The notes: generated by a model not told the origin, from the sequence alone. Shown: positions 6,525 through 23,299, counted from the stretch's first letter. The stretch: DNA of 64,000 bases from an uncultured Anaerolineales bacterium (GCA_964653285.1 CAZZEX010000012.1:5692-69691); one strand, 5' to 3'. Numbers and translations are program-made.

Positions 6525-7637
6525 GTGGCCAAGCAAAAGATTCTGGTGGTGGACGACGATCAGGGAGGGTTGCGTTTAGTGAAACTGAGCTTACGTCGGG
6601 CAGGGTATCAGGTCGTTACAGCGGTAACGGGCGAGGAAGGCGTGCAGAGAGTTCGCACGGAGAAGCCTGACCTGGTGCTGATGGATGTGATGATGCCGGG
6701 TATGGGCGGTTTTGAGGCCACTAAGCACATTCGTCGGCTGCCTGAGGGCCGTCGCATGCCCATCATCTTCCTCTCCGCCCTGGACCGAACGGAGGCGAAG
6801 GTAAAAGGCCTGCGTATAGGGGGGAACGACTACATCGCCAAGCCAGTGAAGATGGGCGAGTTGCTGGCTCGTGTCGAGGCCCACCTGCGGCTGGAAGCCC
6901 CCGCCCCGGGCCAGTTGATCACTATGTTCGGCAGCAAAGCCGGCGTGGGTACCACCACGCTGATGGTCAACCTGGCTCTGGCCCTGGGCAATGTTTCGCG
7001 GAAGAGCGTTCTGCTGGTGGACTGGCAGCGCCCACTCGGGGATGTCGCGCTCTTTCTGGGCCTGCCCAAGAAGCGCGTATTGGAATCCCTTCTTCCCCAC
7101 GCCAATGACCTGGACGAACAGGGGTTTAACACCGCGCTGAAGGAGTACCTGCCAGGCGTGTGGATTCTTCCTGGGGCAACAGACCCGGCCTCTGCCGATC
7201 AAATGAACCGGGAGGCCTTAAGCAAAGTATTGGAAATGGCCCTGATCAAGGCGGATTACGTCCTCGTGGACGGCGGTTCCTTCTTCTCCTGGGAAGCCCC
7301 GCCTCTGGTCGCCAAGGGGAAAGGGATCAACCTGAGTGTGTTGATGCCCGAACTCACGTCCATCGAGCGAGCCGCTGATGCCGTGGGGGCCGCCAACGTA
7401 ACGAATGATAATTTCTGGCTCCTCTTGAACCGACACGGCATGCCTGGGGGCATCCCGCGTAAGCAGATTGAGTCGCGCTTAAGGATCACTCTCAAGGGAT
7501 GCGTCCCGGACGCGGGCGCTCAGGTAACCCGCGCCTTGAACGAAGGACGTCCCTTGTACATAGCCGATCCGGGTTCGGGCTTCTCCCGCGCCATAGATGA
7601 TATTGCCACGCGCATACACGAAGCCCTGGCTCCGTGA
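6525..7637 (+). CDS. response-regulator receiver fused to a TadZ/CpaE-like ParA/MinD-family ATPase
   Basis: GTG start. The REC domain has all canonical residues (VVDDD, LMDVMMPGMGG, FLSA, YIAKP). The C-terminal ParA-like domain has the deviant Walker A GSKAGVGTTT, which lacks the GK[ST] lysine as in TadZ/CpaE. Confidence 0.8.
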   Translation: MAKQKILVVDDDQGGLRLVKLSLRRAGYQVVTAVTGEEGVQRVRTEKPDLVLMDVMMPGMGGFEATKHIRRLPEGRRMPIIFLSALDRTEAKVKGLRIGGNDYIAKPVKMGELLARVEAHLRLEAPAPGQLITMFGSKAGVGTTTLMVNLALALGNVSRKSVLLVDWQRPLGDVALFLGLPKKRVLESLLPHANDLDEQGFNTALKEYLPGVWILPGATDPASADQMNREALSKVLEMALIKADYVLVDGGSFFSWEAPPLVAKGKGINLSVLMPELTSIERAADAVGAANVTNDNFWLLLNRHGMPGGIPRKQIESRLRITLKGCVPDAGAQVTRALNEGRPLYIADPGSGFSRAIDDIATRIHEALAP

Positions 7638-7670
7638 GCATATCTGGACATTGGCAATTTTGCTCGTAGT

Positions 7671-7715
7671 AACGACTTTAGTCGTTCAAAGTGAGGCTAG
7701 AGCGACTGAAGTCGC
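7671..7715. promoter_or_regulatory. two related palindromes (AACGAC-TTTA-GTCGTT and GCGAC-TGAA-GTCGC), centres 30 bp apart
   Basis: Read directly at 7671-7686 and 7702-7715, in the intergenic region upstream of the OmpR-family regulator gene. Neither has a T-tract, so they are unlikely to be terminators. Confidence 0.35.
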
Positions 7716-7872
7716 CACTACGACCCCCATATCTTGCGGGTTCATCCGTTGCCACACCGTAAATGTGGGGGACTTCAAAATTTGCCAGACTCCAGCAGTG
7801 TAATAGCCGGGTGGAAAGTGACGGTGTAGCCAACCAGCAACCCTGATTGCGGACAGGGAGGCCAGAGGCGAT

Positions 7873-8700
7873 ATGACAGAAGTACCCGCCCTCCCACAGC
7901 CTGATCCAAGGGCCAGATTGCTCGTCGTGGACGACGAAGCCAATCTGCGTGCTGGGCTGCGGAATCTCCTCAGCCTGATGGGGTATCACGTCGAAGAAGC
8001 CGCTTCCGGTCACAGGGCGCTGAAGTTGCTGGAGAGCGCGCCCTACGACCTGATGGTGCTGGACATACGCATGCCGGGGATGGATGGGACCGAGGTGATG
8101 CATCGCGCTCGACAGATGCACCCCGACCTGTCTATCATCGTGCTGACAGCCCATGCCTCACTGGAGAGCGCCATCGCTGCCGTAAAATCAGGTGCGGCGG
8201 ACTACATGCTCAAGCCATTCAACGTAGAGGACCTCGCCGCCGCCATCTCCCAGACCCTGCAAAAGCGCGCTGAGCAGTTGCGCCGCCAGCAGTTGCTGAA
8301 TCTGATAGGCCATGCACTGGACACGCTGGACCAGGCGGAAAGGCCAGCAGCACCTCCACCCTCCCCCCCGACGCCCCCAGAGCGTTTCCTGCACACTGGT
8401 CCTCTAACGCTGGATCGCCAAAAGCGGCTGGCCGTGATGCAGGGTGATCCGCCTCGCACGGTTGAACTGACGGAGGGCGAAACGGCCATCCTGGCTGTTC
8501 TGATGGAGCACCCCAATCAGGTACTCTCCTGCAGCCAGTTGGTTCATGCTGCGATGGGCTACGACCTGGACGAACAAGAAACCCAAAATCAAGTACGTCT
8601 CTATGTTTTCCGTCTGCGCCGCAAGATCGAAACCGACCCCGGCAAACCCCATCTGATTCGCACGGTGCGCGGACGTGGTTACTTCTTAACCCCCGCTTGA
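7873..8700 (+). CDS. OmpR/PhoB-family response regulator (REC + long P-rich linker + winged-helix DNA-binding domain)
   Basis: Canonical REC residues (LVVDDE, VLDIRMPGMDG, VLTA, YMLKPF). The C-terminus LTEGETAILAVLMEHPNQVLSCSQLV...VRLYVFRLRRKIETDPGKPHLIRTVRGRGY is the Trans_reg_C pattern. Confidence 0.85.
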   Translation: MTEVPALPQPDPRARLLVVDDEANLRAGLRNLLSLMGYHVEEAASGHRALKLLESAPYDLMVLDIRMPGMDGTEVMHRARQMHPDLSIIVLTAHASLESAIAAVKSGAADYMLKPFNVEDLAAAISQTLQKRAEQLRRQQLLNLIGHALDTLDQAERPAAPPPSPPTPPERFLHTGPLTLDRQKRLAVMQGDPPRTVELTEGETAILAVLMEHPNQVLSCSQLVHAAMGYDLDEQETQNQVRLYVFRLRRKIETDPGKPHLIRTVRGRGYFLTPA

Positions 8701-8743
8701 CGATAGCCTCCATTCCTTCTATATCCTATACCTCTCATCTCCC

Positions 8744-8808
8744 TGAAAACTTTTGAAATGCTGTTGAAACTGAACTGAAAGCGCACAGGCGCGCTTTTAT
8801 GCTATACT
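8744..8808 (+). promoter_or_regulatory. archaellin promoter candidate: four helically phased TGAAA direct repeats followed by an extended -10 (TGcTATACT)
   Basis: TGAAA at 8744, 8754, 8765 and 8776 (spacing 10, 11, 11 nt). TGc+TATACT at 8800-8808. There is no good -35 hexamer, and the last repeat occupies the -35 position. A weaker alternative -10, TGgTATATT, lies at 8863-8871. Confidence 0.45.
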
Positions 8809-8997
8809 CGCCTATGAAAGTGTGACATGCTTCGTGAGTGTATCAATATTGCTCTGCATCAATGGTATATTCGGCAGATTCATCGGTGGGGGAAAGGAGA
8901 TGAAAAACAGAGACAAGAAAGACAAGAAACAAAGGAAAGAAACAGTGTATGTTCACCTGTCAATCGAATCTATAGTCAAATCCAAAGGAGACAAGAA

Positions 8998-9570
8998 ATG
9001 ACCAGCAAACTGAATAGGTTACTAAGAGATGAAAGTGGTATCACCGCTTTGGAGACGGCGATCATCTTGATTGCCTTCGTCGTGGTCGCAGCCGTCTTCG
9101 CCTTCACCATTCTCTCGGCCGGCACGTTCACGACCGAGCGAAGCAAGGAGGCGGTGTACGCCGGCCTTGAGGAGGTCAGGGGATCGCTGGAACTCAGGGG
9201 AAGCATCATCGCTAACGGCATTACCAGCACGAACTCCATCACCAACGTGGTCTTCACCGTCGCCAACGTTGCTGGTGGCCAGGCCGTCGACATGTCTACC
9301 ACGAGTAGGGTGGTGGTCGTCGAGTACCGCGACAGCAGCCAGCGCAAGGAGATCACCGACTGGTCAGTGAGTTGGCTGGGGTATAACGATGCAGACACCC
9401 TTCTCGAAGAGAGGGAACTGGCGGAGATCACCGTCCCCTTGAACAGCCTCAGCCCCACCCTGGGAGCCAACACGATTTTCGTCGTCGAGGTGAAACCTCC
9501 GCGGGGTGCCGTCCTCAATCTCCAGAGGACTACGCCAGCCGTTATTGACCTAGTGATGGATCTCAACTAG
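8998..9570 (+). CDS. arlB: archaellin-like filament protein 1 (class III signal peptide)
   Basis: I chose ATG 8998 (SD-like aaaggag upstream) over the 57-codon upstream ORF extension. [14 protein letters not shown] / [46 protein letters not shown] matches the archaeal flagellin N-terminal-like domain. About 190 aa, with a beta-rich C-terminal part. Confidence 0.78.
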
Positions 9571-9585
9571 AATGGGGGTAAGAAA

Positions 9586-10173
9586 ATGAATAAGAAAATA
9601 AAGATGAACAGACTGCTAAGGGATGAAAGTGGTATCACCGCGCTGGAGACAGCGATTATCTTGATTGCCTTCGTCGTGGTCGCAGCCGTCTTCGCCTTCA
9701 CCATTCTCTCGGCCGGCACGTTCACGACCGAGCGGAGCAAGGAGGCGGTGTACTCCGGCCTGGAGGAGGTCAGGGGATCGCTGGAACTCAAGGGAAGCGT
9801 CATTGCCAGGGGAGGATACATCAGCCCCACTGACGTTATCTCAGACGTGATCTTCACCGTCGCCAACGTTGCTGGCGGTCAGGCCGTCGACATGTCTACC
9901 ACGAGTAGGGTGGTGGTCATCGAGTACCGCGACAGCAGCCAGCGCAAAGAGATCACCAATTGGTCAGTGAATTGGCTGGGGTATAACGATGGGGATACCC
10001 TTCTTGAAGAGAGGGAACTGGTGGAGATAACTGTTCCCCTCACCAATACCCTTTCTCCTTACTTGGGAGCCAACACGATCTTTGTCGTCGAGGTGAAACC
10101 TCAGCGGGGTGCGGTCCTCAATCTCCAGAGGACTACGCCAGCCGTCATTGACCCAGTGATGGATCTCAACTAA
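9586..10173 (+). CDS. arlB: archaellin-like filament protein 2 (tandem paralogue)
   Basis: The N-terminal domain is the same as in 8998-9570, and a 77-nt stretch is identical (9064-9140 = 9658-9734). It diverges mainly in one internal patch. An alternative start is ATG 9604. Confidence 0.78.
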
Positions 10174-10218
10174 GGAAGGCTGGCGGATCGCCTTCGAGTT
10201 CGCGGGTCTCGACTGAGT

Positions 10219-10260
10219 GGTTCGGCTGGGTCATAGGGCCCAGTCGAACCGCTTATCTTA
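10219..10260 (+). terminator. possible attenuator/terminator hairpin after the archaellin genes
   Basis: ggttcggctggg (10219-10230) pairs with cccagtcgaacc (10239-10250) with one mismatch, followed by gcttatctta. The T-tract is weak. Confidence 0.35.
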
Positions 10261-10299
10261 AGCAGAGACCACCACCATAGCCAAAACGAGGAGGTTCTC

Positions 10300-10866
10300 G
10301 TGGAACTGGAACACAGAGTGGAGGAACTCGAACGTGAATTGGAAATCCTGAAGGAAACGATGCGAGAAACGCTGCTGGCTATTCAGAAGAGCCTGCCGGA
10401 GAAACCAGCCAGCCCTTCGCGATGGCAGAAGAAGGCCTGGATGTTGGCGCTGCTCAACACCCTCTTGGCCATCACCTTGTTCACCAACATCCGCTTCTAT
10501 ACATCGGACACCCCCCCCTTCGGGATCGGTTCCCTTCTGAGCCCCTGGCTACAGGCGTTTTGGGTGGCCTTGGCGTTCCTGTGGCTGCTCCTCCAGATGT
10601 ACCCCCTGGCGCTGCTCCTGGATCAGGAAGACGGGCGGGCGCGCAAGGTGACCTGGCGTAATTCGGTCGCGCTCTTCAGGTCCAACCCGGGGTTGACCCT
10701 CGCGCTGACGTCGTTGGTATTGATCTTGGCCACCATCAGCGCGCTGTTCCCATCGCTGTGGTTCGTGGTTATGGTGGCGCTGTTCGCCGGCGTGTGCGCC
10801 AACGCGGCGGGGCAACTGGTGCAGTCGTGTCGGCAGCGGGCACAGATAAGAGGGAAAGGAAAGTAG
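10300..10866 (+). CDS. membrane protein: N-terminal coiled coil plus four TM helices (archaellum accessory candidate)
   Basis: GTG start 8 nt after GGAGG. The N-terminus ELEHRVEELERELEILKETMRETLLAIQKSL is paralogous to the N-terminus of 11099-11359. Four hydrophobic helices follow. Confidence 0.6.
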   Translation: MELEHRVEELERELEILKETMRETLLAIQKSLPEKPASPSRWQKKAWMLALLNTLLAITLFTNIRFYTSDTPPFGIGSLLSPWLQAFWVALAFLWLLLQMYPLALLLDQEDGRARKVTWRNSVALFRSNPGLTLALTSLVLILATISALFPSLWFVVMVALFAGVCANAAGQLVQSCRQRAQIRGKGK

Positions 10867-11017
10867 AGAGGGGAAGGGAGGGAATGCACTCGAGGGCCTG
10901 TGATACCAGAGAGTGAAACTCTACTGTAACGAAATCGTAACCGAGGCCGGGTGAGGAGTGTAGTAAACTGTGTCATGGCAAGCATAAGGAGGGATCCTAT
11001 CTTTTCAATAAACCGGG

Positions 11018-11072
11018 GTAGGGGCAGGTCTTGTACCTGCCCAAGAGGGCGACCACGAGGGTTCGCCCCTAC
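11018..11072 (+). other. GC-rich double-hairpin element in the intergenic region
   Basis: gggcaggt/acctgccc form an 8-bp stem with a 5-nt loop at 11022-11042. gggcgacc/ggttcgccc form an 8-bp stem with one bulge at 11047-11068. The pair is flanked by gtagggg...cccctac. Confidence 0.35.
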
Positions 11073-11098
11073 ATATTGAGATGATACGAGGGGTCGTT

Positions 11099-11359
11099 AT
11101 GACAGTGGAACAGAAGGTCAAGATGCTCGAGTACGAAATGAAAATCCTGAAAAATGAAATACAGCGAACGCTCCTGGATATTCAGGAGCAACTTCTACTC
11201 CATTATTACCCTTCTCTCAGAACAGATGAGTCCTCGCCTCCGGAGAGCATCCTGCGTTCTATCGAAACCATCCAAAAGAAAAAGGCGGAGCGAGAGGAAG
11301 AAGAAGAGCAATCGCGTTACCTATCTGAGGAGAAGACAGACCAGACCTCCATAGTGTAG
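11099..11359 (+). CDS. small soluble coiled-coil protein (possible FlaC/ArlC-like module)
   Basis: ATG 11099 follows gaggggt (an alternative ATG is at 11081). VKMLEYEMKILKNEIQRTLLDIQEQL shares 13 of 26 residues with the N-terminus of 10300-10866. The C-terminal tail is acidic and lysine-rich. Confidence 0.55.
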   Translation: MTVEQKVKMLEYEMKILKNEIQRTLLDIQEQLLLHYYPSLRTDESSPPESILRSIETIQKKKAEREEEEEQSRYLSEEKTDQTSIV

Positions 11360-11436
11360 TTGTCGCAGCAAGTGAGCAATAGCGTGGGGAGAGGAGGCCC
11401 TCTCGCTCATAGAGAAGACAAACGAGGAGGCCAGCC

Positions 11437-11904
11437 TTGGATAAAACAATTGTGACGGCCATCATGATCATAGCGGGTGTGGTGTCCGCGGTATTTGTCT
11501 TTAACGCCCTCTACCCCGCGACCATCCAAGGCGGGGAGGCTATGATCAACATGGAGAGGAGGATAGGCGAGCGCCTCAAAAGTAAGATCGAGATCATTCA
11601 CGCCACCGGAAGCGGCAGCAATGCACTGGTATGGGTCAAGAATGTCGGATCCTTGTCCATCAAAGCAGTCGAGAGGTGCGACGTTTTCTTTGGGCCAGAG
11701 AGCGATTTCTCCCGCATCCCCCATAAAGACGAGGCCGGGGGGACCCCTTATTGGGAGTGGGAGGTGGAAAACGACACCGAGTGGAGACCCACGGCGACTT
11801 TGCAGATTACCATCACCTGTGGTGGTCCCGTCTTATCGGGGAGATACTTCGTGAAAGTGGTGACCCCCAACGGCCTCTCCGACGAGTACTACTTCAGCGA
11901 GTGA
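11437..11904 (+). CDS. ArlF/ArlG-family (FlaF/FlaG-like) archaellum stator-type protein
   Basis: TTG start 8 nt after GGAGG. N-terminal helix TIVTAIMIIAGVVSAVFVFNALYP, then IEIIHATGSGSNALVWVKNVGSLSI...CDVFFG, the beta-sandwich pattern typical of FlaF/FlaG. I cannot tell F from G by eye. Confidence 0.68.
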   Translation: MDKTIVTAIMIIAGVVSAVFVFNALYPATIQGGEAMINMERRIGERLKSKIEIIHATGSGSNALVWVKNVGSLSIKAVERCDVFFGPESDFSRIPHKDEAGGTPYWEWEVENDTEWRPTATLQITITCGGPVLSGRYFVKVVTPNGLSDEYYFSE

Positions 11905-11907
11905 CCT

Positions 11908-12408
11908 ATGGAGACGGCGATTACTGCACTCATAGTCATAGCCCTTCTGTTGTTGGTGGTACTTACTATCTCCGAGCGTTACTTCTCTGCACAGGAGGCT
12001 GTTGTGAAATCCTGGCAGGCGATGGAAGAACAAATGGAAGAGAGAGCCGGGACAAATCCCGCGCCCGTTGACGCGGGAACCATAGCCGGAGGCGCAATAG
12101 TGGAGGTAACCCTCAGGAACGAAGGAGACATCAAGTTGGCCGACTTTGACCGCTGGGACGTCATTATTCAGTATTATGATGATTTTGATGGGTACTACAT
12201 AAAATGGCTTCCGTATGCTCAGCCAGGAGACAGGTGGGTAGAGGTATTTCCCCCAGAAGCACAGGTTTTTGATCCGAACATCCTCAATCCAGGTGAGGAG
12301 ATGGTGATTCAGATATCGGTTTCGCCCTCGGTGAAGGAGGGATCCACCAAGTGGGTGACCATCGCCACCCCCAATGGCATCACCGCCTCGACGGTCTTTA
12401 CACGTTAG
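11908..12408 (+). CDS. ArlF/ArlG-family (FlaF/FlaG-like) protein, second member
   Basis: METAITALIVIALLLLVVLTI N-terminal helix, then IVEVTLRNEGDIKLADFDRWDVIIQY. The start lies 3 nt after the previous stop. Confidence 0.68.
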   Translation: METAITALIVIALLLLVVLTISERYFSAQEAVVKSWQAMEEQMEERAGTNPAPVDAGTIAGGAIVEVTLRNEGDIKLADFDRWDVIIQYYDDFDGYYIKWLPYAQPGDRWVEVFPPEAQVFDPNILNPGEEMVIQISVSPSVKEGSTKWVTIATPNGITASTVFTR

Positions 12409-12488
12409 ATCTCTCAAACATGTACTGTCTGGAGGGCAACGTTGGTATGAACGGCCAATCCAGGAGCGATTCACCGGGAGATGGGAAG

Positions 12489-12866
12489 ATGAAGATCTGT
12501 CTCATACACGCCAGGCGCGCGGCAGGGGAGGTGTTGGCTAGAGCCCTCTCCTGCAGGTTGAACGCTGAGGTTGATGTGTTTTCTTACTGTGAGAATGCCC
12601 TGGCAACTGCCTTGGACTACGACGTGTTCGTCGTGTACAACAACTTTCAGAAGAAAATGACCGGGTTTCAGGGAGTCAAGAAGATCAGAGCCCGGAAGCC
12701 GCAGGCCTTTATTGTTGGCGTAACTTCCAATCCCAATCTTACCAGGAAGTTCATTTCGGTCGGGGCGGACACCTTCCTTCTGAGGGCTGGAAATGAAATC
12801 GCGGAACTGGTCGGAATTGTTCGTCAGAGGGAAGGCGTCGCCGGGTCTACACTTGAGCGTGGTTGA
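12489..12866 (+). CDS. pseudo-receiver (degenerate CheY-like) domain protein
   Basis: MKICLIHARR...YDVFVVYNNFQKKMTGFQGVKKIR...AFIVGVTSNP...GADTFLLRAG follows the REC secondary-structure pattern. The acidic pocket (HA instead of DD), the phospho-Asp position (Y) and the conserved Lys (R) are all replaced. The start is uncertain (ATG 12447 or 12489). Confidence 0.5.
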   Translation: MKICLIHARRAAGEVLARALSCRLNAEVDVFSYCENALATALDYDVFVVYNNFQKKMTGFQGVKKIRARKPQAFIVGVTSNPNLTRKFISVGADTFLLRAGNEIAELVGIVRQREGVAGSTLERG

Positions 12867-12934
12867 GGGCTGGGTTGGACAAACAGATCGTGCCCGACGA
12901 CTGAAGTGGTCAAACCTGGGCTTGGAAATGGAGG

Positions 12935-12976
12935 GCCCTCTGTGTGTGAATCACTCCCGCAGAGGGCTTTTCTTTC
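12935..12976 (+). terminator. Rho-independent terminator
   Basis: gccctctg (12935-12942) pairs with cagagggc (12960-12967) and is followed by ttttctttc. Confidence 0.55.
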
Positions 12977-13160
12977 GCCCCTGGGCGGTTTAACGCCCGG
13001 CCGGGCGAGCAGAGCAGCACCAACATGCCAGGGGCAAACTGCCCCCTGTTGTGTCAACCCGCAACATTACTGTAACACAAGTGAAACCTCGAGAAAGCCG
13101 ATTCTGAGTTATACTGGCCTGTGAGCCTCCTATTCTGATGGCTGAGGTAGAGGAGTTGCA

Positions 13161-13652
13161 ATGAATGGTTTCGTATGCAAGCCAGTGGACCCCGACGAAC
13201 TCCACAGGGGCACTGAACCGTTCCTGCCTCGGACCCCAGATCTACGAGTACGAGAACGCCAGGTAGCGGAGAAACCACAGTTCACCCTGCCGGTGGATCT
13301 CGACGAGGCTCTGAGAGTGGTAGATGGGGACGATGATCTCTTGCGAGACGTGGTTGAAATGTTCTCAGAGGAATGCCCCAAACAGGTGGAGGCGTTGAGA
13401 GAGGCTCTGGCACGGCAAGACGCACCGGATGTCGAAAGTACGGCGCACAGGCTGAAGGACATCCTGGGCAACGTCGGAGGCCTGGCAGCGCGCGATCTGG
13501 CCCAGCGCATGGAGACTATGGGCGAGGAGGACAAACTCGATGGCGGATCGGCTGTGCTGGAAGAACTGGAAGTTGAGATAAGGCGCGTGGTGACATTCTT
13601 TTCGGAACTGGGATGGGAGCAAGGTGCCCTTGGACGTGAGGGAGGGCAGTGA
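13161..13652 (+). CDS. stand-alone histidine phosphotransfer (HPt) protein
   Basis: ATG follows GAGGAG. LDEALRVVDGDDDLLRDVVEMFSEECPKQVEALREAL...STAHRLKDILGNVGG is the HPt four-helix pattern with the AHxLK phospho-His motif. The N-terminal 45 aa are unrelated (see finding). Confidence 0.8.
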   Translation: MNGFVCKPVDPDELHRGTEPFLPRTPDLRVRERQVAEKPQFTLPVDLDEALRVVDGDDDLLRDVVEMFSEECPKQVEALREALARQDAPDVESTAHRLKDILGNVGGLAARDLAQRMETMGEEDKLDGGSAVLEELEVEIRRVVTFFSELGWEQGALGREGGQ

Positions 13653-14095
13653 TGGGTGCTAAGGCGCGTGTACTTGTCGTTGACAATAACCGTCGCACGG
13701 TGATAATCATCAAACATGCCTTGAAAAAGCAAGGCTGCGAAGTTCTTACCGCCTTCGACGGCAAAGAGGGGTTACGAAAGGCACGAGAGGAGAAGCCCGA
13801 CCTCGTCATCTTGGATGTCATGGTGCCCAGAATGAATGGGTACGAAGTCTGTTACCGCCTGAAAACCGATCCGGATACCGCTCACATAGCGGTGCTCATG
13901 CTCACCGCCGAGGGAGAAATTGATAATGACGCGAGGCATCAATTTACCGACCGTCTCGAAAACCAGTTACAGGGTCTCGAGATTGGGACCGTAGATTTCT
14001 TGACCAAGCCGATTAAAGCGAGAGACCTGCTGAGGCAAGTGAAGACATCGCTTTACCGGTTGTCCCAAAGACCGGTGGTGGAGTTTCGAGATTGA
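13652..14095 (+). CDS. single-domain CheY-like response regulator
   Basis: The ATG shares one nt with the HPt TGA stop. VLVVDNN, DLVILDVMVPRMNG, LMLTA and DFLTKP show that the phospho-Asp, Thr and Lys are all present. Confidence 0.85.
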   Translation: MGAKARVLVVDNNRRTVIIIKHALKKQGCEVLTAFDGKEGLRKAREEKPDLVILDVMVPRMNGYEVCYRLKTDPDTAHIAVLMLTAEGEIDNDARHQFTDRLENQLQGLEIGTVDFLTKPIKARDLLRQVKTSLYRLSQRPVVEFRD

Positions 14096-14108
14096 GGGAG
14101 ATGTCCAG

Positions 14109-15173
14109 ATGGCTAAAAAGATACTACTGATCGAGAACGATCTTCAAATCATGAATCTAATCAGGGAGCCCCTCGAGGATGAGGGCTACGTGGTGGTGAC
14201 GACCAGGGATGGTCCCGAAGGACTGAAACTGGCCAGGAGGGAGCAGCCCAATCTCGTAGTAGTGGACTTCAACCTGCCAAGTATGACGGGGAACATAGTC
14301 GCCCGCCGCCTGCGACATGATCCAGCCACGGATCACCAGGCGATCCTCATGATCTCCGGCGAGGATCAGTTAGAGGAAATAGAGATTGGTCCTAAAACAA
14401 GTGCCGACGACTTCCTCATCATGCCTTTCGATGTCGCGGAATTGTTGACCAAGGTCAGGCCCCTACTTATAGGTGCAGAGGATGAGAAAGGGACAGTGAT
14501 CTCGACGGGGAACAGCGAACTCGACGTCAAGATGGGAGGAGGAATACCCATGGGCTCCTTGACCCTGATCGAGGGCGATTCGGGGGCCGGCAAATCCGTG
14601 CTTTCCCAGCAGATGATGCGTGGGTGCCTGGACAATGGACATAGACTAACCCTCTTTAGTAGCGAGAACACAGTGAAGAGCCTGGTCACACAAATGCAGA
14701 GCCTGAATTTAGGCATCCTGGACTATCTCCTCTTGAGCAGGCTGAGGGTAATTCCTATCGAGACCTCGCGACTGGGCGGGGATGCTCCTTCCATCTTGAT
14801 GGAGGCCATGCAAAAGGAGGAGAAGGGGCACGAGATTACCATTGTGGATTCTCTTACCTCATCCATTCCCGGCTCCTCCGAAAAGGAGGTGCTCATCTTT
14901 TTCGAGGAGTGCAAGAGGCTGTGTGCGAATGGCACAAGTGTCATCATCGTCGTTCACTCTCACGGCCTGACCAGTGAACTCCTCGCCCGCATCCGGTCTC
15001 TTTGTGATGCCCACCTCCAGCTGCGCACTGAGGAGGTGGGACAGAAGATGGTCAAGGCTTTGGAAGTGACGAAGGTAAGGGGAGCAGATCAACACACAGG
15101 CAATATCATCAGCTTCGAGGTGGAGCCAGGATGGGGGATGAGGGTCATACCCATAAGCAAGGTCAGGGGATAG
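14109..15173 (+). CDS. arlH: receiver domain fused to ArlH (FlaH) KaiC/RecA-like ATPase
   Basis: N-terminal 120 aa are REC-like (ILLIEND, NLVVVDFNLPSMTG, LMISG, but DDFLIMPF with Met in place of the conserved Lys). The C-terminal 230 aa read ELDVKMGGGIPMGSLTLIEGDSGAGKSVLSQQM...ITIVDSLT, the FlaH Walker A/B pattern. Confidence 0.82.
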   Translation: MAKKILLIENDLQIMNLIREPLEDEGYVVVTTRDGPEGLKLARREQPNLVVVDFNLPSMTGNIVARRLRHDPATDHQAILMISGEDQLEEIEIGPKTSADDFLIMPFDVAELLTKVRPLLIGAEDEKGTVISTGNSELDVKMGGGIPMGSLTLIEGDSGAGKSVLSQQMMRGCLDNGHRLTLFSSENTVKSLVTQMQSLNLGILDYLLLSRLRVIPIETSRLGGDAPSILMEAMQKEEKGHEITIVDSLTSSIPGSSEKEVLIFFEECKRLCANGTSVIIVVHSHGLTSELLARIRSLCDAHLQLRTEEVGQKMVKALEVTKVRGADQHTGNIISFEVEPGWGMRVIPISKVRG

Positions 15174-15179
15174 AGTTTT

Positions 15180-16865
15180 GTGGCGCAGATGGAGTTGCCT
15201 TTTGCCTATGAGAAGAGCAATAGCGGACGCGCCCGCGACTCTAACCGCCGCCTCCACTCTCTACTCCCCAAGCCTCTACAGAAGGCCTGCGCGGAGAATA
15301 ATTTCCTCGACGATTACCTGCACTGGCTTCCAATTGATGAGATCGGTGTTCCCGACTACTATCCTAGACTCTCGAGGAACCTGAAGGACCTGGCGGTGCG
15401 TAACCTGATCTACCAGATTAAAGATGGTCTCTTCATCCACATTTACCCCGACCCGACGAGCGCAAGAGATATTTACATCCCCATAGAACCTCACATGACG
15501 GTGGATCTGGAGGATATCATGCCGGAGGTAGAGGCCAAACTCCTGGATTGGGCCGAGGAAATCGGCCTGGCGGAGACAGAGGAGGAGAAAAAGGAAGCGC
15601 TTGTGCGCGCGATAGACGAGATCGTCACCACCAACGCCGGAGTTGGGAAGACTCAGGTGACGCCCCGGCAACTGGAGGGGCTCCGGTACGTCATCACACG
15701 AGACAAGGCCGGCCTCAGTGTGCTGCAGCCGCTGCTCCTGGACCCCTACATTGAGGATATAAGTTGCAGCGGGGTGGGGTCTATCTTTATCGAACATAAG
15801 GTCTTCAAAAGCCTCCAGGCCGCCATCGTGTTCCCCACCCACGAGGACCTGGACGACTTCGTGGTCTGGATGGGCGAGTGGATTAAGAGACCCGTCACTA
15901 TACGCAACCCGATTGTGGACGCCACGCTTCCTGATGGGTCTCGTATAAATATCGTCTATGGAACCGACATCTCCAAGCGAGGGAGTAACTTCACAATCCG
16001 CAAGTTCAGCGAAACTCCTATCAGCATAATGGAACTCATCGAATTCGGAACTCTGGACTACATGATGGCTGCATATCTCTCCTTCATCCTTGAGGAGGGT
16101 ATGAATATGTTCGTCGCGGGCGCGACGGCGTCGGGCAAAACGACCACGCTTAATGCCATCACCACCTTCATCCTCCCTGACAAAAAGATCGTGAGCATAG
16201 AGGACACACCGGAACTCCAGGTCCCCCACAAGAACTGGATTCGAGAGGTGACCAGGGGAACAGGGCGAGAGAGCAAAGATAGCGCGGTGGGGATGTTCGA
16301 TCTCCTCAAAGCGGCCCTGAGGCAGCGCCCGGACAGGATCATCATTGGAGAGATCAGAGGAGAAGAAGGGGCTATTGCCTTCCAGGCGATGCAAACGGGG
16401 CACGGGGTGCTGTCCACCTTCCATGCTGCTTCTGTGGAGAAGCTCATCCAGCGCCTTACCGGAGAGCCCATTAACATACCCCGGGCTTACGTGGATAACC
16501 TCGACGTGGTGATTATTCAGGCTGCCGTGAGGGCACCCGGTGGGGGAGGAATGGTGCGGCGGATCCTCAGCATCAATGAGATCGTGGGGTACGATCCAAC
16601 TAGCAAGAGTTTCTCCTTCATCGAGGCCTTCCGCTGGAACCCGACAAGGGACACTTTTGACTTTCCAGGTTACATGAACAGCTATCTTCTGGAGGAAAAG
16701 ATAGCCATGAGGCGAGGCATCCCTCCTCACAAGAGAAGAGCGATCTACACAGAACTTAAGAAGAGAGCGAAGATCTTTGAGAAGCTCCATAGACAGAGAA
16801 AGGTGAGGGATTTCTATGACGTCTTCAAAATCACCGCAGAAGCGCACCGGCAAAATCTTCTCTGA
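15180..16865 (+). CDS. arlI: ArlI (FlaI) archaellum assembly/motor ATPase, type II/IV secretion NTPase superfamily
   Basis: 561 aa. FlaI-type N-terminus (NLIYQIKDGLFIHIYPD...YIPIEP). Walker A VAGATASGKTTTLNAI, plus EDTPEL and IIIGEIRGEE motifs. GTG 15180 start (alternative ATG 15189). Confidence 0.88.
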   Translation: MAQMELPFAYEKSNSGRARDSNRRLHSLLPKPLQKACAENNFLDDYLHWLPIDEIGVPDYYPRLSRNLKDLAVRNLIYQIKDGLFIHIYPDPTSARDIYIPIEPHMTVDLEDIMPEVEAKLLDWAEEIGLAETEEEKKEALVRAIDEIVTTNAGVGKTQVTPRQLEGLRYVITRDKAGLSVLQPLLLDPYIEDISCSGVGSIFIEHKVFKSLQAAIVFPTHEDLDDFVVWMGEWIKRPVTIRNPIVDATLPDGSRINIVYGTDISKRGSNFTIRKFSETPISIMELIEFGTLDYMMAAYLSFILEEGMNMFVAGATASGKTTTLNAITTFILPDKKIVSIEDTPELQVPHKNWIREVTRGTGRESKDSAVGMFDLLKAALRQRPDRIIIGEIRGEEGAIAFQAMQTGHGVLSTFHAASVEKLIQRLTGEPINIPRAYVDNLDVVIIQAAVRAPGGGGMVRRILSINEIVGYDPTSKSFSFIEAFRWNPTRDTFDFPGYMNSYLLEEKIAMRRGIPPHKRRAIYTELKKRAKIFEKLHRQRKVRDFYDVFKITAEAHRQNLL

Positions 16866-18306: not shown

Positions 18307-18313
18307 AAAGGCT

Positions 18314-19261
18314 ATGACGTTCACAGAGGAAAATCTGCAAGCCACATCAGGGCACCTCGAGGCCACCCTCAATGGATCTGACAATGTAGACAATCATGAG
18401 GCTGAGGCGGGGAAGTTGGCGGGTCTCAAGGACCTCGTAAGGGGATCTCGAGGCACCCTCCTCGGACTGGTCTTTCTGGCTGGGCTGCTCCTGGGTTGGG
18501 TGGTCATCGGTTGGTGGCTCTGGCCGGTGAAATGGACCAACTCCGAGCCCTGGCTCCTGCGTCCGGAGCACCAAAGGACGTTCGTCGGCCTGGTGGCGGA
18601 CGACTATTGGCATACCAGGGATGTATCCCGAGCCAGGCAGGCCCTGGCTGGCTGGGATGACGAAGCCCTGACCAACCTCATGGCCACGATGCAGTCTCAG
18701 GCATCCAGCCCTGAGGAGTGCCAGCACCTGGCAGCGCTGGCGGATGCGCTGGCACTGCCGAATCCAGAAGAGTCTTTATTAACCTCTCTCCTTAATCATA
18801 AGATCCTCATCTTGAGCGCTGTCTTGTCAGCAGCGCCGCTGGTGGCGGCGATTGCTCTTGCTGTTTCTCCCCTGATGCGGCGCGGAGTGAAGAAGCATAA
18901 AAGACTGCTGGGTCAAGGAGTAGAAGATCTGGAAGAAGAACTTGAACAACTGCTGGCTCAGGAAAAAGAACAACAGGCTCAAGAAGAAGAACAGGAGGCT
19001 GGAGAAGAGGAAGAAGAGAAGGAGTGGGAAGAAGGTGAAGAAGAAGAAGAAGGAAATGAATGGCTGGATGAAGAAATAGGGGAAGAAGACCAAACGATAC
19101 AGGGTATTCTGTCGGGCATCTTCGAGGAGGAAGATGAGACACTGGGCTATTATGCATCCATCTGCAAGAACTTGGAGGATATAGATATAGATGATCTGGT
19201 ACAAAAGAGCCAGGAGGTAATGGGGCAGATCGTGAGGAGTAACACGCTACGCCAGGCATAG
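18314..19261 (+). CDS. two-TM membrane protein with extremely acidic Glu-rich C-terminal tail, unknown function
   Basis: TM helices LLGLVFLAGLLLGWVVIGWWLW and ILILSAVLSAAPLVAAIALAV. The tail reads EDLEEELEQLLAQEKEQQAQEEEQEAGEEEEEKEWEEGEEEEEGNEWLDEE. The gene is tightly packed between arlJ and the peptidase gene. Confidence 0.6.
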   Translation: MTFTEENLQATSGHLEATLNGSDNVDNHEAEAGKLAGLKDLVRGSRGTLLGLVFLAGLLLGWVVIGWWLWPVKWTNSEPWLLRPEHQRTFVGLVADDYWHTRDVSRARQALAGWDDEALTNLMATMQSQASSPEECQHLAALADALALPNPEESLLTSLLNHKILILSAVLSAAPLVAAIALAVSPLMRRGVKKHKRLLGQGVEDLEEELEQLLAQEKEQQAQEEEQEAGEEEEEKEWEEGEEEEEGNEWLDEEIGEEDQTIQGILSGIFEEEDETLGYYASICKNLEDIDIDDLVQKSQEVMGQIVRSNTLRQA

Positions 19262-19300
19262 ATTCGTGGATAGCCCAGGATAGCAAGGATAGACTGAGCC

Positions 19301-20020
19301 ATGACTCTTCCGTGTGCATTGGTGGGACTGTTGGTGGGGAGCCTTCTCAACTGGGCCGGGGATTACCTGCCGCGCTTCGCCTCCAGCAGCGCGGCTTCTT
19401 CGTATGAACCCACTCCCCGGCCCAGGTCCGCCCTGTGGTATCTACTGACATCCTCCCTATTCCAGAGAAACTTGGTTCACCTCCAGAGATCGTCCTGGTT
19501 GGGTGTTGCAGTGGAGATTCTCACCGCCTTACTCCTCGCCTATCTCTGGGAACGTTTCGGGCCATCATGGAGACTGCTCTTGCTGGCTCTTACCGGCTTC
19601 TTTTTTTTGCTCATCGCCATCATTGACCTGCGATACCGGTTGGTTCTGAATGTGTTGATCTACCCTGCTGCTGTGGTGACATTGCTCATTCACTCTGTGC
19701 CCCCTGGAAAGGATACCCTCATCGCTCTCCTGGGTGGCGCAGTCGGACTTGCACCCTTCTTGTTGGTGGCCCTGCTTAAGCCAGGAGATATAGGCGGGGG
19801 CGACGTAAAACTGGCCGCCCTCATCGGGCTGATGGTCGGTTTTCCGCAGGTGCTGTGGGCTCTGTCGCTCGGCATCCTGGCAGGCGGGATCACGGCTCTT
19901 ATCCTTCTTTTCACCCGTCGTTGGGGGCCCAGGAACTACATTCCCTATGCTCCCTTCCTCTGCCTGGGGGCAGTGTTCTCCCTTGTCTACGACCCTTCCC
20001 CCCTGATATTCCCTCTTTGA
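19301..20020 (+). CDS. A24-family prepilin/prearchaellin signal peptidase (PibD/ArlK/FlaK-like)
   Basis: Polytopic. The two catalytic Asp contexts are LLIAIIDLRYRLV and GDIGGGDVKLAALIG. Confidence 0.85.
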   Translation: MTLPCALVGLLVGSLLNWAGDYLPRFASSSAASSYEPTPRPRSALWYLLTSSLFQRNLVHLQRSSWLGVAVEILTALLLAYLWERFGPSWRLLLLALTGFFFLLIAIIDLRYRLVLNVLIYPAAVVTLLIHSVPPGKDTLIALLGGAVGLAPFLLVALLKPGDIGGGDVKLAALIGLMVGFPQVLWALSLGILAGGITALILLFTRRWGPRNYIPYAPFLCLGAVFSLVYDPSPLIFPL

Positions 20021-20101
20021 ATAGGGTGAGGCATCTGCTTCAGTTTACAATTGCCAAACTACAATTTGCGGAAAGAGATGCTTTGTGGTAGGATAATTGA
20101 C

Positions 20102-21745
20102 ATGGCTTCACAAGACTCTCTTGACCTCAACGGCCCGCTGGAGCAACCCCAGCCACGCAGCCCACGCCGGGGTACGATAATCCTGTGGCTGGTAGCAATC
20201 AGTGGGGTCATCCTTCTCCTTCCTCTCTACCTCGTCTCCACCACCATCCGTGGCGATATCACCCGTTCGGAAGCCAATCTCCAATCTGCCCACGAGGCTC
20301 TGACAAGCGAAGGAACGCCAGAGCCCGAGGCCCAAGAGATTATGGACGACCTGGCCCAGGTACAGGGAACGGTTAACGAGATTGAGGGAGTATATTCCGC
20401 CCTGGCAGCCGGTCACGTCAATTGGCCGGCTGTAATGGCCGCCATTGGCAACTACGATCCGTCCCAACTCGCTCTCGATTCTGTCGCCCACTCCGGTAAC
20501 CAAATCACCCTCAACGGGCGAGCCATTGACGACTCCGCTGTGATGGTCTACAGTCGTGCCCTCGAAGAGTCGGACCTTTTCTCCCGCGTCGTCGTGCAGT
20601 CCGTGAGGCTGATCGCCACTCCCTTTGCATCACCGACGGGCACGGCGGTGGAACCATCAGGGACACCTCTGACGCCTACCGCGACTATTACACCCACGGC
20701 GACCCCCACTCCGACCCCCGACCCGACCGATGGATATGAGGTGGATGACTTCACACCCAAGGTCATCCTCCTGGGCCAGCCACAATCACACAACTTCTAT
20801 CCCGTCTACGACGTGGATAGGGTCAAGTTCCTCGCCAAAGCGGGGCGCTACTACCGAGTTTCCACCGCGGACCTGTCTCCAGGGGTGGATACTTTCCTGA
20901 CCATGATCCTGGGAGGAACCACCTACACCAACGATGATCGCGAACCAGGCTCTCTGAGTTCCGAGATCATGTTTCAAGCCGGGGCCGGCAGCGACGTGGA
21001 GGCGATCGTCAAAGTGACGAACCGGGGACAGTATGGTACTGACAGTTGGTACCAGATCACCGTTGAAGAGATTATCCCCACACCCACACCGACGCCCACA
21101 CCCACACCGACGCCCACGCCCCTGCCCACACCGACGCCCACGAGTCTCCCCCCTCCCACCGCCACACCGGCAGATACACCCACGCCTACTCCGGACCTGC
21201 GTGACGAGTATGAACCCGACGATACTAACCCCCAACCCATCGCTATGGGAGAGATGCAGAAACACAATTTCTATCCGGATAACGACACGGACAGGATGGA
21301 GTTCCTGGCCAAAGCAGGGCGCTACTACCGGGTCTCCACCTCAGGCCTGATGCCGGGGGTGGACACTTTCCTGACCGTGAGCCTGGGTGAAACCATCTAC
21401 ACCAACGATGATCGCGACGATAATCACGAACCAGGCGACCTGAGTTCCGAAATCGTCTTTCAAGTTGAGAGCGGTGACGTAAATGCTCTCGTCGAAGTGA
21501 CGAATCGGAGACAGTATGGCCCTGACAAGTGGTATCAGATCACCGTTGAAGAGATTGCCCCCACACCCACCCCTACATCCACAAGCACGCCCTTGCCCAC
21601 GGATACACCATCGTCTTCCTCAAGTTCCTCAAGGCTTCCTGGCGTAGCCTCGCTGGCCTGCGGGGGTGGGAGGCCTTCAGGTGTTTTCAGCCCCACGGCG
21701 GTTGAATTTGTGATTGCCTTGGAGTTAAAGACAGAATCGCCATGA
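20102..21745 (+). CDS. PilN-like bitopic protein with two extracellular PPC (pre-peptidase C-terminal) domains
   Basis: I chose ATG 20102. A short cytoplasmic N-terminus is followed by one TM helix (IILWLVAISGVILLLPLYLV), a coiled coil and a PilN-like fold (QITLNGRAIDDSAVMVYSRALEESDLFSRVVVQSV). Two ~115-aa repeats then follow (D.YE.DD...Q.HNFYP..D.D...F.AKAGRYYRVST..L.PGVDTFLT......YTNDD), separated by TPTP linkers. Confidence 0.68.
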   Translation: MASQDSLDLNGPLEQPQPRSPRRGTIILWLVAISGVILLLPLYLVSTTIRGDITRSEANLQSAHEALTSEGTPEPEAQEIMDDLAQVQGTVNEIEGVYSALAAGHVNWPAVMAAIGNYDPSQLALDSVAHSGNQITLNGRAIDDSAVMVYSRALEESDLFSRVVVQSVRLIATPFASPTGTAVEPSGTPLTPTATITPTATPTPTPDPTDGYEVDDFTPKVILLGQPQSHNFYPVYDVDRVKFLAKAGRYYRVSTADLSPGVDTFLTMILGGTTYTNDDREPGSLSSEIMFQAGAGSDVEAIVKVTNRGQYGTDSWYQITVEEIIPTPTPTPTPTPTPTPLPTPTPTSLPPPTATPADTPTPTPDLRDEYEPDDTNPQPIAMGEMQKHNFYPDNDTDRMEFLAKAGRYYRVSTSGLMPGVDTFLTVSLGETIYTNDDRDDNHEPGDLSSEIVFQVESGDVNALVEVTNRRQYGPDKWYQITVEEIAPTPTPTSTSTPLPTDTPSSSSSSSRLPGVASLACGGGRPSGVFSPTAVEFVIALELKTESP

Positions 21746-23109
21746 ACTTCTTGAGTAGATTGGGAGAGCGTATCCCGTCCGGGGAGCGCCTCTATTCCCT
21801 GCTGGCTATCGTTGTCATCATCGCGGCAGCGCTTGGCATCATTTTTTTCATCAGATTCTCCATCCTGCCACAATGGCAAACCAGAAGCGAACTGGCCTTC
21901 CAACTGGCTGCGGCGCAGCAACAACTGGTGGACACCGAAAGGGCCCAGGAGGAGAACCCCGACAAGTTAAGGGAGCAACTGGAAGCGGCGCAGGCCAAAC
22001 TGGACGAGGCATCTGGTCTCTTTTTCAGCGAGTCCCAGGCGGCTGAAGTGTTGAACAATCTGTACCAGTACGCCAACGAGAGTGGTGTGGAGATCACCAG
22101 TCTGCAAAACCAACCTGGTCCAGAGGAGGAAAAGAAGGACATCTACGACGTCAAGACGTTCCAACTGCAAGTCGCAGGCTCTGTTCCCAATTTGATTGCC
22201 TTCATGTCCCGGATCAAGGAAGCCACATCTGAGAGCTTCATAATCAGTAATGTGAACATCGTAGAAGGCGAGAAACTACATACCCTCACCATGGATATCA
22301 CTCTCTATACCTCCCCCTACTCCTCTGGAGCGGCTGACCAGGCAGAGCCTGGCATCATTCCCACGGTGACACCGATAAACCTGACTCAGTTAGAGAAAGA
22401 GCTGGCGACAGCCTGGGCGGCGGAAGATTGGGACCAGGCGATATTCCTCATCAACCAGATCCGGGCCATAGACCCAGATTACGATGACATGGCGGAGAGA
22501 CTTTACATGGCCTACGTCAATTATGGTTCCCAGCTCTTGACGGAGGGAAACAGCGGCGAGGCGATAGCGCAGTTCGACCTGGCTCTGGAGATCAAACCAG
22601 GCGGGGAGGAGGCTGTGGCGGGGCTCCAGCAGGCTTCCGTTACACCAACTCCAACCTTGAGCGTGGAGGAGCAACTGGAACAAGACCTGGACGATGCGTG
22701 GGAGGCGGGAAACTGGGAAGAGGCCATCAGCCTGATCGAGCAGATATTGGAGATCAACCCTGAATACGACGAGATGACCGAGAAGCTCTACGCAGCCCAC
22801 GTGAGCTATGGGTACCAGCTCGCTGCTGAGGGAAAACTTGAGGAAGCGAAGGGGGCATTCAGCCATGCCCTAGACATCAAACCTGACGGAGAGGAGGCCA
22901 AGGCTGGGCTGCAACAGTTGGCTGGTGGCACGCTGCCTTCAACGCCGACCCCAGAATCTCAGTACACTATCCACGTGGTTCAGCGAGGCGAGAACCTGTT
23001 TCGCATCGCGCTGCGCTACGGCACCACCGTGGAAGCGATCATGGCAGCCAACGGGCTGACCAACAATACTATTTACGTGGGCCAGCAGCTGCGCATCCCC
23101 ATCCGCTAG
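21742..23109 (+). CDS. PilO-like bitopic protein with TPR repeats and C-terminal LysM domain
   Basis: ATGA overlap with the previous gene. One TM helix, a coiled coil, then AEVLNNLYQYANESGVEITSLQ...FQLQVAGSVPNLIAFMSRI (PilO pattern). Two TPR-like repeats (W..A...I.QI..I.P.YD.M.E.LY.A.V.YG.QL...G....A...F..AL.IKP). LysM: YTIHVVQRGENLFRIALRYGTTVEAIMAANGL...VGQQLRIP. Confidence 0.68.
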   Translation: MNFLSRLGERIPSGERLYSLLAIVVIIAAALGIIFFIRFSILPQWQTRSELAFQLAAAQQQLVDTERAQEENPDKLREQLEAAQAKLDEASGLFFSESQAAEVLNNLYQYANESGVEITSLQNQPGPEEEKKDIYDVKTFQLQVAGSVPNLIAFMSRIKEATSESFIISNVNIVEGEKLHTLTMDITLYTSPYSSGAADQAEPGIIPTVTPINLTQLEKELATAWAAEDWDQAIFLINQIRAIDPDYDDMAERLYMAYVNYGSQLLTEGNSGEAIAQFDLALEIKPGGEEAVAGLQQASVTPTPTLSVEEQLEQDLDDAWEAGNWEEAISLIEQILEINPEYDEMTEKLYAAHVSYGYQLAAEGKLEEAKGAFSHALDIKPDGEEAKAGLQQLAGGTLPSTPTPESQYTIHVVQRGENLFRIALRYGTTVEAIMAANGLTNNTIYVGQQLRIPIR

Positions 23110-23160: not shown

Positions 23161-23189
23161 TTGACAACCCCTCACCCGCGTGTTATACT
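23161..23189 (+). promoter_or_regulatory. sigma-70-type promoter of tRNA-Lys (TTGACA-17-TGtTATACT)
   Basis: TTGACA at 23161-23166 and TATACT at 23184-23189 with a 17-nt spacer. The tRNA 5' end lies 10 nt downstream of the -10 element. Confidence 0.65.
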
Positions 23190-23198
23190 TGCTACCGT

Positions 23199-23272: not shown

Positions 23273-23299
23273 CTGGGGGAAGCAGACAAGTAGACAAGC

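Follow-up and report, generated by a model that had tools for sequence, protein, structure and literature searches.

Archaellum gene clusters in Bacteria have been described from the Chloroflexota, where 244 complete clusters were counted among 3,780 genomes, and where swimming motility and a filament structure at 2.7 A were reported for Litorilinea aerophila (Sivabalasarma et al., Nat Microbiol 2025, PMC12488501). In the published phylogeny the Chloroflexota systems are nested in the archaeal archaella as sister to Methanotecta, and pilN and pilO-LysM genes are linked to the loci (PMC12488501). Cross-domain transfer of the archaellum is real, already published, and experimentally shown in 2025. 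The Litorilinea locus, compared here through a Litorilinea sp. metagenome-assembled genome (MAG; locus L085) and a second locus with an archaellin 100% identical to that of L. aerophila (L086), runs pilN, pilO-LysM, arlB, arlCDE, arlG, arlF, a gene for a 129-aa receiver, arlH (242 aa), arlI, arlJ and a gene for a 330-aa protein. A stretch of 64,000 nucleotides from an uncultured Anaerolineales bacterium (GCA_964653285.1, CAZZEX010000012.1:5692-69691; the whole stretch is called the window) was analyzed, of which positions 6525-23109 hold an archaellum-type gene block. The block is a further example of that transfer, not its discovery.

The block is one unbroken co-directional run of 19 plus-strand open reading frames (ORFs), with short gaps or overlaps between them (Table 1). 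Families were assigned by Pfam and NCBIfam profile searches (gathering scores and equivalog cut-offs), by PDB sequence matches, and by alignment to the Litorilinea locus. Every ORF that a preliminary description of the DNA had named in the block was present where it had been placed, on the plus strand, and the profile matches, of a strength that chance could not give, confirmed the assignments. None of the 19 ORFs is interrupted, and the motifs (Walker, His box and GGGDVK) read as intact in the sequence. Gene content, family membership, catalytic motifs, synteny and the bacterial host were established directly. The gene order arlG to arlF is the arl2 arrangement, as described for Chloroflexota, and the block is very probably a genuine arl2-type archaellum operon in an Anaerolineae (Chloroflexota) chromosome, of a lineage acquired from Methanotecta-like euryarchaea.

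Both filament genes scored as archaellins, as the description had proposed (92-94 bits on Arch_flagellin, whose gathering score is 29.5, with E 2e-26 and 8e-26), and also matched the TIGR02537 N-terminal domain above its cut-off. For arlB1 the start at 8827 was set aside, an ATG at 8998 with an AAAGGAG ribosome-binding site (RBS) being more likely. ArlB2 is 88% identical to ArlB1, and each is 65% identical to the L. aerophila filament chain (PDB 9i5h/9sie) over the full-length precursor and ~68% over the mature chain. The cleavage site (between G and ITALE) and the mature N-terminus are the same as in the L. aerophila archaellin, for which the roles of the metal-site residues were described and O-glycosylation was put at T66 and T145 (PMC12488501). 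By alignment, the metal-site residues (D121, D127, E131 and E134 in L. aerophila) are kept in both archaellins, and ArlB2 keeps both threonines matching the putative O-glycosylated sites.

The remaining core genes were assigned by matches of differing strength. FlaH-, FlaI- and FlaJ-like proteins had been proposed, and the models NF004723 and NF058587 were passed above their cut-offs, while the FlaJ-type protein matched ArlJ models only. ArlI has an intact Walker A motif (GATASGKTT), Walker B/Glu motif (IIIGEIRG) and His box, and its PDB matches were FlaI at 450 bits (4ii7, E 9e-134), A. fulgidus GspE at 302 bits and CpaF at 151 bits (E 6e-43). ArlH is the C-terminal part of a fusion with a receiver domain (REC::ArlH; receiver residues 5-117, KaiC-like FlaH ATPase residues 124-353); this part carries the Walker A motif GDSGAGKS, passes the FlaH model, and has its best PDB match in FlaH 4yds (E 4e-32). 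ArlJ matched T2SSF (E 3e-10); no Tad or Pil platform model was matched in NCBIfam, and no solved relative was found in PDB. Of the FlaF/FlaG-like pair, ArlG was recognized by its FlaG match and gave weak NCBIfam ArlF/ArlG matches, and ArlF, for which direct family matches were weak, by these matches together with its identity to Litorilinea ArlF in a conserved position. The A24 peptidase scored well above the Pfam gathering score; no NCBIfam match was found for it, and the PilD and PibD subtypes were not told apart. It would presumably process ArlB1 and ArlB2, cutting off the class III leader between G and ITALE. The 'full conserved core' of the description stood for ArlB, ArlF, ArlG, ArlH, ArlI, ArlJ and the peptidase, but the ArlCDE-like gene typical of the lineage is truncated.

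Compared with Litorilinea, the window shares the phylum, the class, the arl2 core order arlB-arlCDE-arlG-arlF-(receiver)-arlH-arlI-arlJ-unassigned membrane protein, and the linkage of PilN and PilO-TPR-LysM genes to the locus. Identities were 63% for ArlI, 62% for the ArlH ATPase domain, 54% for ArlG, 49% for ArlJ, 41% for ArlF and 59-68% for the archaellins. Litorilinea differs in its stand-alone 242-aa ArlH after a separate 129-aa receiver, where the window has ArlH fused to a receiver; in its full ArlCDE of 211 aa, where the window gene is without the C-terminal domain; and in its 208-aa PilN, where the window protein has 564 aa with extra extracellular repeats. The PilN/PilO genes lie 3' of arlJ with the A24 peptidase in the window, whereas Litorilinea has them 5' of arlB, with a peptidase reported to be encoded outside the locus. 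Beyond the Litorilinea gene set, the window has genes for a REC-MinD-like protein, an OmpR regulator, a pseudo-receiver and a second coiled-coil protein, and the Hpt remnant. The euryarchaeal arl2 operons of Methanotecta (for example the Archaeoglobaceae and Methanosarcinales loci L072, L056 and L039) have the same order of arlB, arlC/D/E-like, arlG, arlF, arlH, arlI and arlJ, with identities of 51-54% for ArlI and 42-50% for ArlH, and their ArlC/D/E-like protein has the same coiled-coil motif at its N-terminus. They differ in their stand-alone ArlH and full-length ArlD/E-like domains, and have no PilN/PilO, LysM, OmpR or operon phosphorelay.

Related loci (L-numbers) came from an ArlI scan with one genome per species, and the best 80 of 394 relatives were used. 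ArlI identity was 60-74% to Chloroflexota MAGs with the same gene order (74% for the best species-representative genome), 50-58% to Dehalococcoidia, and 51-54% to Methanosarcinales, Archaeoglobaceae and 'Ca. Methanoxibalbensis'. The top 38 genome matches carry Chloroflexota names, bar one contig binned as Pleurocapsa. A neighbor-joining (NJ) tree was built from 81 ArlI sequences; the eight from archaea form a group apart, and the window falls within an Anaerolineae-type clade beside L001, a placement that agrees with the published phylogeny. A host with peptidoglycan genes, the G-F order and the grouping of ArlI place the locus in the Chloroflexota 'bacterial archaellum' clade. Archaellum contigs were also seen under the labels 'Pleurocapsa sp.' (L022; 41.8 kb, ArlI 63%) and 'Terracidiphilus sp.' (L061; 3 kb), and a REC::ArlH protein (P0066) under 'Deltaproteobacteria bacterium'; the most likely reason is mis-binning of Chloroflexota contigs.

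Among the genes flanking the block are those for an FtsX-type permease, a glutamate-racemase-type protein (MurI), a CAP protein, cohesin/LysM proteins, XseA, XseB and MurJ. XseA is 82-86% identical to its nearest named relatives, which are named Anaerolineae or Chloroflexi, and the host was therefore placed in Chloroflexota, class Anaerolineae. Of the bacterial flanks first described, the MurI-type racemase, MurJ, XseA, XseB and the LysM/cohesin proteins were recovered; the LPXTG protein was not, as no sorting signal was found in the 17 flanking ORFs inspected. The description's statement that archaella in Bacteria are known from Chloroflexota only was right and covers this host as well, and the locus is therefore an instance of the published case (PMC12488501), not a spread to a new phylum.

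Table 1. Features of the archaellum block and of its surroundings, positions counted from the first nucleotide of the window
Feature	Position	Strand	Match or character
Cohesin protein with two LysM domains	3093-4316	-	secreted; cohesin domain, two LysM domains
Cohesin protein	4235-4864	-	secreted; cohesin domain
Dockerin-like protein	5208-6260	-	secreted; two dockerin-like repeats at end
Promoter-like element	6417-6445		TTGACA-17-TATACT
REC + MinD/ParA-like, first block gene	6525..7637	+	Response_reg E 1.6e-28; AAA_31 27.5 bits
OmpR-family response regulator (REC + winged helix)	7873..8700	+	Response_reg E 7e-32; Trans_reg_C E 4e-20
arlB1, archaellin, class III signal peptide	8998..9570 (ORF from 8827)	+	Arch_flagellin 93.5 bits; PDB 9i5h E 1.8e-60
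arlB2, archaellin	9586..10173	+	Arch_flagellin 91.8 bits; PDB 9i5h E 1.4e-59
Coiled-coil protein with hydrophobic region	10300..10866	+	N-terminus 57% over 30 aa to Litorilinea ArlCDE
Truncated arlCDE-like gene, 92 aa	11081..11359	+	57% identity to Litorilinea ArlCDE (211 aa) over its residues 1-42
arlG, stator component	11437..11904	+	S. acidocaldarius FlaG 5tug E 2.3e-11
arlF, stator component	11908..12408	+	FlaF_Ig-like E 1.9e-5 (below gathering score); FlaF 4p94 E 0.03
Degenerate (pseudo-)receiver	12489..12866	+	Response_reg E 1.8e-4, below gathering score
Hpt phosphotransfer protein	13161..13652	+	Hpt E 4e-13
CheY-like single-domain receiver	13649..14095	+	Response_reg E 2.6e-23; canonical acidic pocket, Asp, Thr, Lys
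REC::ArlH fusion	14109..15173	+	NF004723 FlaH 252.5 bits (cut-off 194); Response_reg E 1e-18
arlI, motor/assembly ATPase	15180..16865	+	NF058587 FlaI equivalog 652.6 bits (cut-off 550)
arlJ, single polytopic platform protein, 496 aa	16816..18306	+	NF004703 ArlJ E 8e-111, residues 25-495
Conserved post-arlJ protein	18314..19261	+	hydrophobic stretches like membrane segments (by eye), acidic C-terminal tail
A24 prepilin (class III signal) peptidase	19301..20020	+	Peptidase_A24 54 bits (gathering score 26.5); GGGDVK motif
PilN-like protein	20051..21745	+	PilN E 3.6e-7, 30.6 bits (gathering score 22.8); 30% to Litorilinea PilN
PilO-like + TPR + LysM protein	21742..23109	+	PilO 31.7 bits (gathering score 22); LysM E 7.5e-17; TPR
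tRNA-Lys(TTT)	23161-23273 region		promoter-like TTGACA-17-TATACT with TG before tRNA
Glycan biosynthesis cluster, ~37 kb	26399-63853		glycosyltransferases and further genes (see text)
Glycan cluster protein, 487 aa	29953-31416	-	no Pfam match at E 1e-3 to 1e-5
Glycan cluster protein, 687 aa	38159-40222	-	no Pfam match at E 1e-3 to 1e-5
Glycan cluster protein, 496 aa	53531-55021	-	no Pfam match at E 1e-3 to 1e-5
TMEM260-like protein O-mannosyltransferase	58731-60464	-	

Several results weigh against the assignment as an archaellum operon. ArlJ scored 371 bits, under its equivalog cut-off of 570, the ArlH equivalog score (204) is slightly under its cut-off (215), and the ArlF and ArlG scores are under the NCBI equivalog cut-offs. 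The ArlI tree is a midpoint-rooted NJ tree built from archaellum-type sequences, without Tad or Pil outgroups. The arlCDE-like gene holds the N-terminal coiled coil only, the C-terminal ArlD/E-like domain being gone (92 aa here, 199 aa in L002, 211 aa in Litorilinea), and that domain was not found anywhere in the window by tblastn with the L002 and L023 orthologues, of which the N-terminal coil alone matched. The Hpt gene is what is left, at the 3' end, of a hybrid kinase (REC-HisKA-HATPase-REC-Hpt) that stands at this position in relatives (640-1105 aa in L001-L003, L006 and L059); by tblastn the window matches the last ~160 aa alone, and the gene opens with the tail of the second receiver (MNGFVCKPVDPDEL). 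No kinase remnant was found in the ~295 bp of non-coding DNA before it (12867-13160), where stops occur in every frame. In REC::ArlH the receiver keeps Asp53, but Met replaces the conserved Lys. The state of the arlCDE-like gene, of the kinase and of this receiver could mean that function is reduced or altered.

The losses in the arlCDE-like gene, the Hpt gene and the fused receiver are what would be seen in a decaying relic, in which the core genes are still open and the machine is no longer assembled or regulated. We regard such decay as unlikely, since the 19 ORFs are unbroken with their Walker, His-box and GGGDVK motifs, the archaellin pair is kept at 88% identity with its metal-site residues conserved, and an identical ArlI was recovered from several samples (five Logan metagenome contigs from at least four independent runs: SRR8556697, SRR8556772, SRR8557033 and SRR9694931). 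Stand-alone Hpt genes are also found in L010 and L015, so that a short Hpt need not mean a defect, and the remnant in the window carries an ATG and a GAGGAG RBS of its own. A frameshift as the cause of the arlCDE-like truncation was ruled out, because the gap to arlG is short (78 bp). The gene named arlCDE by the authors of L. aerophila is FKZ61_RS14885, and the archaeal counterparts in L039 and L072 gave weak Arch_fla_DE matches in the C-terminal domain. Of a lineage-specific motor scaffold or switch (ArlCDE in Euryarchaeota, ArlX in Thermoproteota) the window holds only the N-terminal coil of the arlCDE-like gene, and no ArlX-like match was obtained in Pfam/NCBIfam searches of the family-less proteins of the block.

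A non-rotary adhesion pilus, either an archaeal-type type IV pilus or a Tad-like one, was considered very improbable. The REC + MinD/ParA-like architecture of the first block gene, which we take to recall TadZ/CpaE, was counted for a Tad-like pilus. The A24 peptidase and the PilN/PilO homologues are pilus-associated parts, the Tad/Flp pilus is distant type IV filament superfamily kin that also uses an A24 peptidase, and archaeal pili were noted to have reached two Anaerolineales by a transfer of their own (PMC12488501). The ATPase decides otherwise: ArlI is over the FlaI equivalog cut-off at 653 bits and far under those of TadA (161 bits, cut-off 373), PilB (60 bits, cut-off 676) and the bindosome ATPase (BasE, 198 bits), with 131 bits on VirB11. 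By these bit scores ArlI is FlaI and not TadA or PilB, and ArlJ matches ArlJ models alone. The filament proteins are archaellins, not Flp or type IV pilins, and close homologues of a proven archaellin, and ArlH, ArlF and ArlG, which are archaellum-specific, have no counterpart in the Tad/Flp pilus. Where that pilus has Flp and a TadB+TadC pair, the window has archaellins and a single 496-aa platform, and no Flp or TadB/C match was found. Type IVa parts in the block are the PilN-like and PilO-like domains only, PilM, PilP, PilQ and pilin being absent among the annotated ORFs of the window; among these ORFs there was, as first described, no secretin, no TadB/C pair and no flagellar gene.

An assembly artefact or contamination that joined archaeal DNA to a bacterial contig would fit the G+C of the block (54.5-56%, against 60-67% just upstream and near 24-26 kb) but is vanishingly improbable and excluded for practical purposes, because the REC::ArlH protein stands on six contigs of up to 73 kb the identical ArlI on five, and bacterial-type genes (OmpR, REC fusions and the peptidoglycan-binding PilN/PilO-LysM) are interleaved in the block. 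Each arl gene has its closest relatives on Chloroflexota contigs and not in archaea, the layout is shared by dozens of such contigs, and the low G+C runs on into a bacterial glycan cluster.

For the archaellum operon, we infer filament assembly, rotation, anchoring and signalling by homology to archaeal and L. aerophila archaella. The ArlJ platform and hexameric ArlI would assemble the archaellin filament and then turn it by ATP hydrolysis, with ArlF/ArlG serving as the stator and the KaiC-like ArlH tuning ArlI. The PilN-like and PilO-TPR-LysM proteins may fasten the machine to peptidoglycan, standing in for the archaeal S-layer. Control would pass through the two-component parts of the operon (the OmpR-type regulator, the REC-MinD-like protein, Hpt, the CheY-like receiver and the receiver on ArlH).

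The receiver-ArlH fusion was found in 18 of the 70 related loci with ArlH, and every one of these 18 falls in the same part of the tree as the window, whereas the archaeal and Dehalococcoidia ArlH among these loci are all stand-alone; 18 fused and 6 stand-alone orthologues were aligned. At least 120 metagenome protein clusters share the ~355-aa architecture. The Asp that would accept the phosphoryl group is present in 14 of 19 fusions. A stand-alone receiver lies just upstream of arlH in 15/18 fusion loci (2/43 others), an Hpt gene is present in 8/18 (0/43 others), and an orthologue of the post-arlJ protein follows arlJ in 16/18 (3/52 others); co-occurrence of the fusion with each was compared by Fisher tests, which ignore shared ancestry and are descriptive only. 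In one Chloroflexota MAG (L013, 8171-9991) REC::ArlH and a stand-alone arlH stand in tandem directly 5' of arlI, a possible intermediate or duplication bearing on the origin of the fusion. No description of the fusion was found in PMC12488501, in PMC13319060, in a 2026 F1-chemosensory preprint or by full-text literature searches.

Among the other signalling genes, the CheY-like receiver of the window is 40% identical to the 129-aa Litorilinea receiver between arlF and arlH; a 2026 preprint doubts the 'CheY' label of the gene in that position. The OmpR-family protein, with orthologues directly 5' of arlB in L002, L010, L015 and L023, is the probable transcriptional regulator of the locus. The REC-MinD-like protein has a P-loop (GVGTTT) without the Walker-A lysine, the best PDB matches of its C-terminal half are MinD proteins of archaea and bacteria (1g3q, E 2.5e-10), and it is a candidate positioning or regulatory factor. 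In the pseudo-receiver the acidic pocket and the conserved Lys are unrecognizable on reading, and orthologues in L001, L003 and L009 align from residues 46-48.

In archaea, chemotaxis is coupled through CheY-CheF-ArlCDE, and CheF is reported absent from Chloroflexota (PMC12488501). Because of this absence, a substitute for that route was considered: the fusion clade, an Anaerolineae sub-clade that includes the window, may inherit REC::ArlH together with the operon phosphorelay (a REC-HisKA-HATPase-REC-Hpt kinase or a stand-alone Hpt, with a CheY-like receiver) and the post-arlJ membrane protein, and the relay might feed the ArlH-ArlI motor complex in place of CheY-CheF-ArlCDE, a proposal that we put forward as tentative and rather doubtful. 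The relay of the window would then be a natural reduced variant, with the kinase lost, the receiver Lys changed to Met, and the ArlD/E domain lost. Residues are degenerate in several fusions, that of the window included, and signalling may run either by phosphorylation or by protein contacts alone.

The PilN/PilO-LysM accessories are already discussed in PMC12488501 and PMC13319060, with PilN/PilO proposed as an alignment scaffold through peptidoglycan and PilO-LysM given beside arl genes in 3/244 genomes (2026, PMC13319060). In the window the PilN-like protein has two extracellular repeat domains split by PT linkers, the second a weak PPC match (E 0.008, below gathering score). The PilO-TPR-LysM protein is 35% identical to Litorilinea PilO-LysM (72-77% in the LysM region) and is a candidate peptidoglycan anchor or alignment scaffold. 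The order arlJ to A24 peptidase, PilN and PilO, with or without LysM, recurs in many Anaerolineae-type loci, and PilN/PilO were present in 24/70 loci; no archaeal or Dehalococcoidia-labelled locus in the scan had them. An A24 gene lies 3' of arlI in one contig only of the Dehalococcoidia/archaeal part of the tree (L053, titled Chloroflexota). Among the species-representative loci L001-L030 and L059, PilO-like ORFs that include the LysM part were observed 3' of arlJ in L001, L012 and L059, and separate LysM-matching ORFs in L003, L005 and L008. These are more PilO-LysM cases than reported, and the arrangement may therefore be under-counted in the literature.

Three proteins of the block (the coiled-coil protein, the arlCDE-like protein and the post-arlJ protein) had no Pfam/NCBIfam family, even at E up to 1-10. 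The N-terminal coil of the first and the ArlC-like coil of the gene after it are paralogues; the hydrophobic part of the first looks membrane-spanning by eye, and orthologues were found in L002 and L023 only among the related loci. The 330-aa protein of Litorilinea occupies the same post-arlJ position, and no similarity to the window's post-arlJ protein was detected.

Around the block, a near-consensus promoter-like sequence precedes the tRNA-Lys(TTT) that directly follows the last block gene, and an equally good one precedes the first; this was the single tRNA in the 64 kb by RNA family search. The glycan biosynthesis cluster just downstream contains many GT2/GT4 glycosyltransferases, methyltransferases, RmlD, epimerases, a Wzt-type ABC transporter, a Bac_transf initiating transferase, the TMEM260-like protein O-mannosyltransferase and three proteins without a Pfam match; a tie to archaellin O-glycosylation is conceivable. 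On the other side of the block, three secreted proteins on the minus strand (3093-6260) form an apparent cohesin-dockerin set, the dockerin-like repeats (DVNADSCINILD and DINDDGTVNILD) having been read by eye.

That a bacterium can carry a complete, presumably working archaellum was established in 2025, and the value of this further, uncultured Anaerolineae locus is comparative. Together with the 80 related loci it shows an add-on module that is syntenic with arlJ over much of the Anaerolineae-type clade, and a sub-clade that gained a receiver on ArlH and a phosphorelay within the operon. The papers of 2025-2026 leave the signalling input to the bacterial archaellum open (no CheF, a doubtful CheY). 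If the relay controls the motor, it would show the re-wiring of a horizontally acquired archaeal machine to bacterial signalling.

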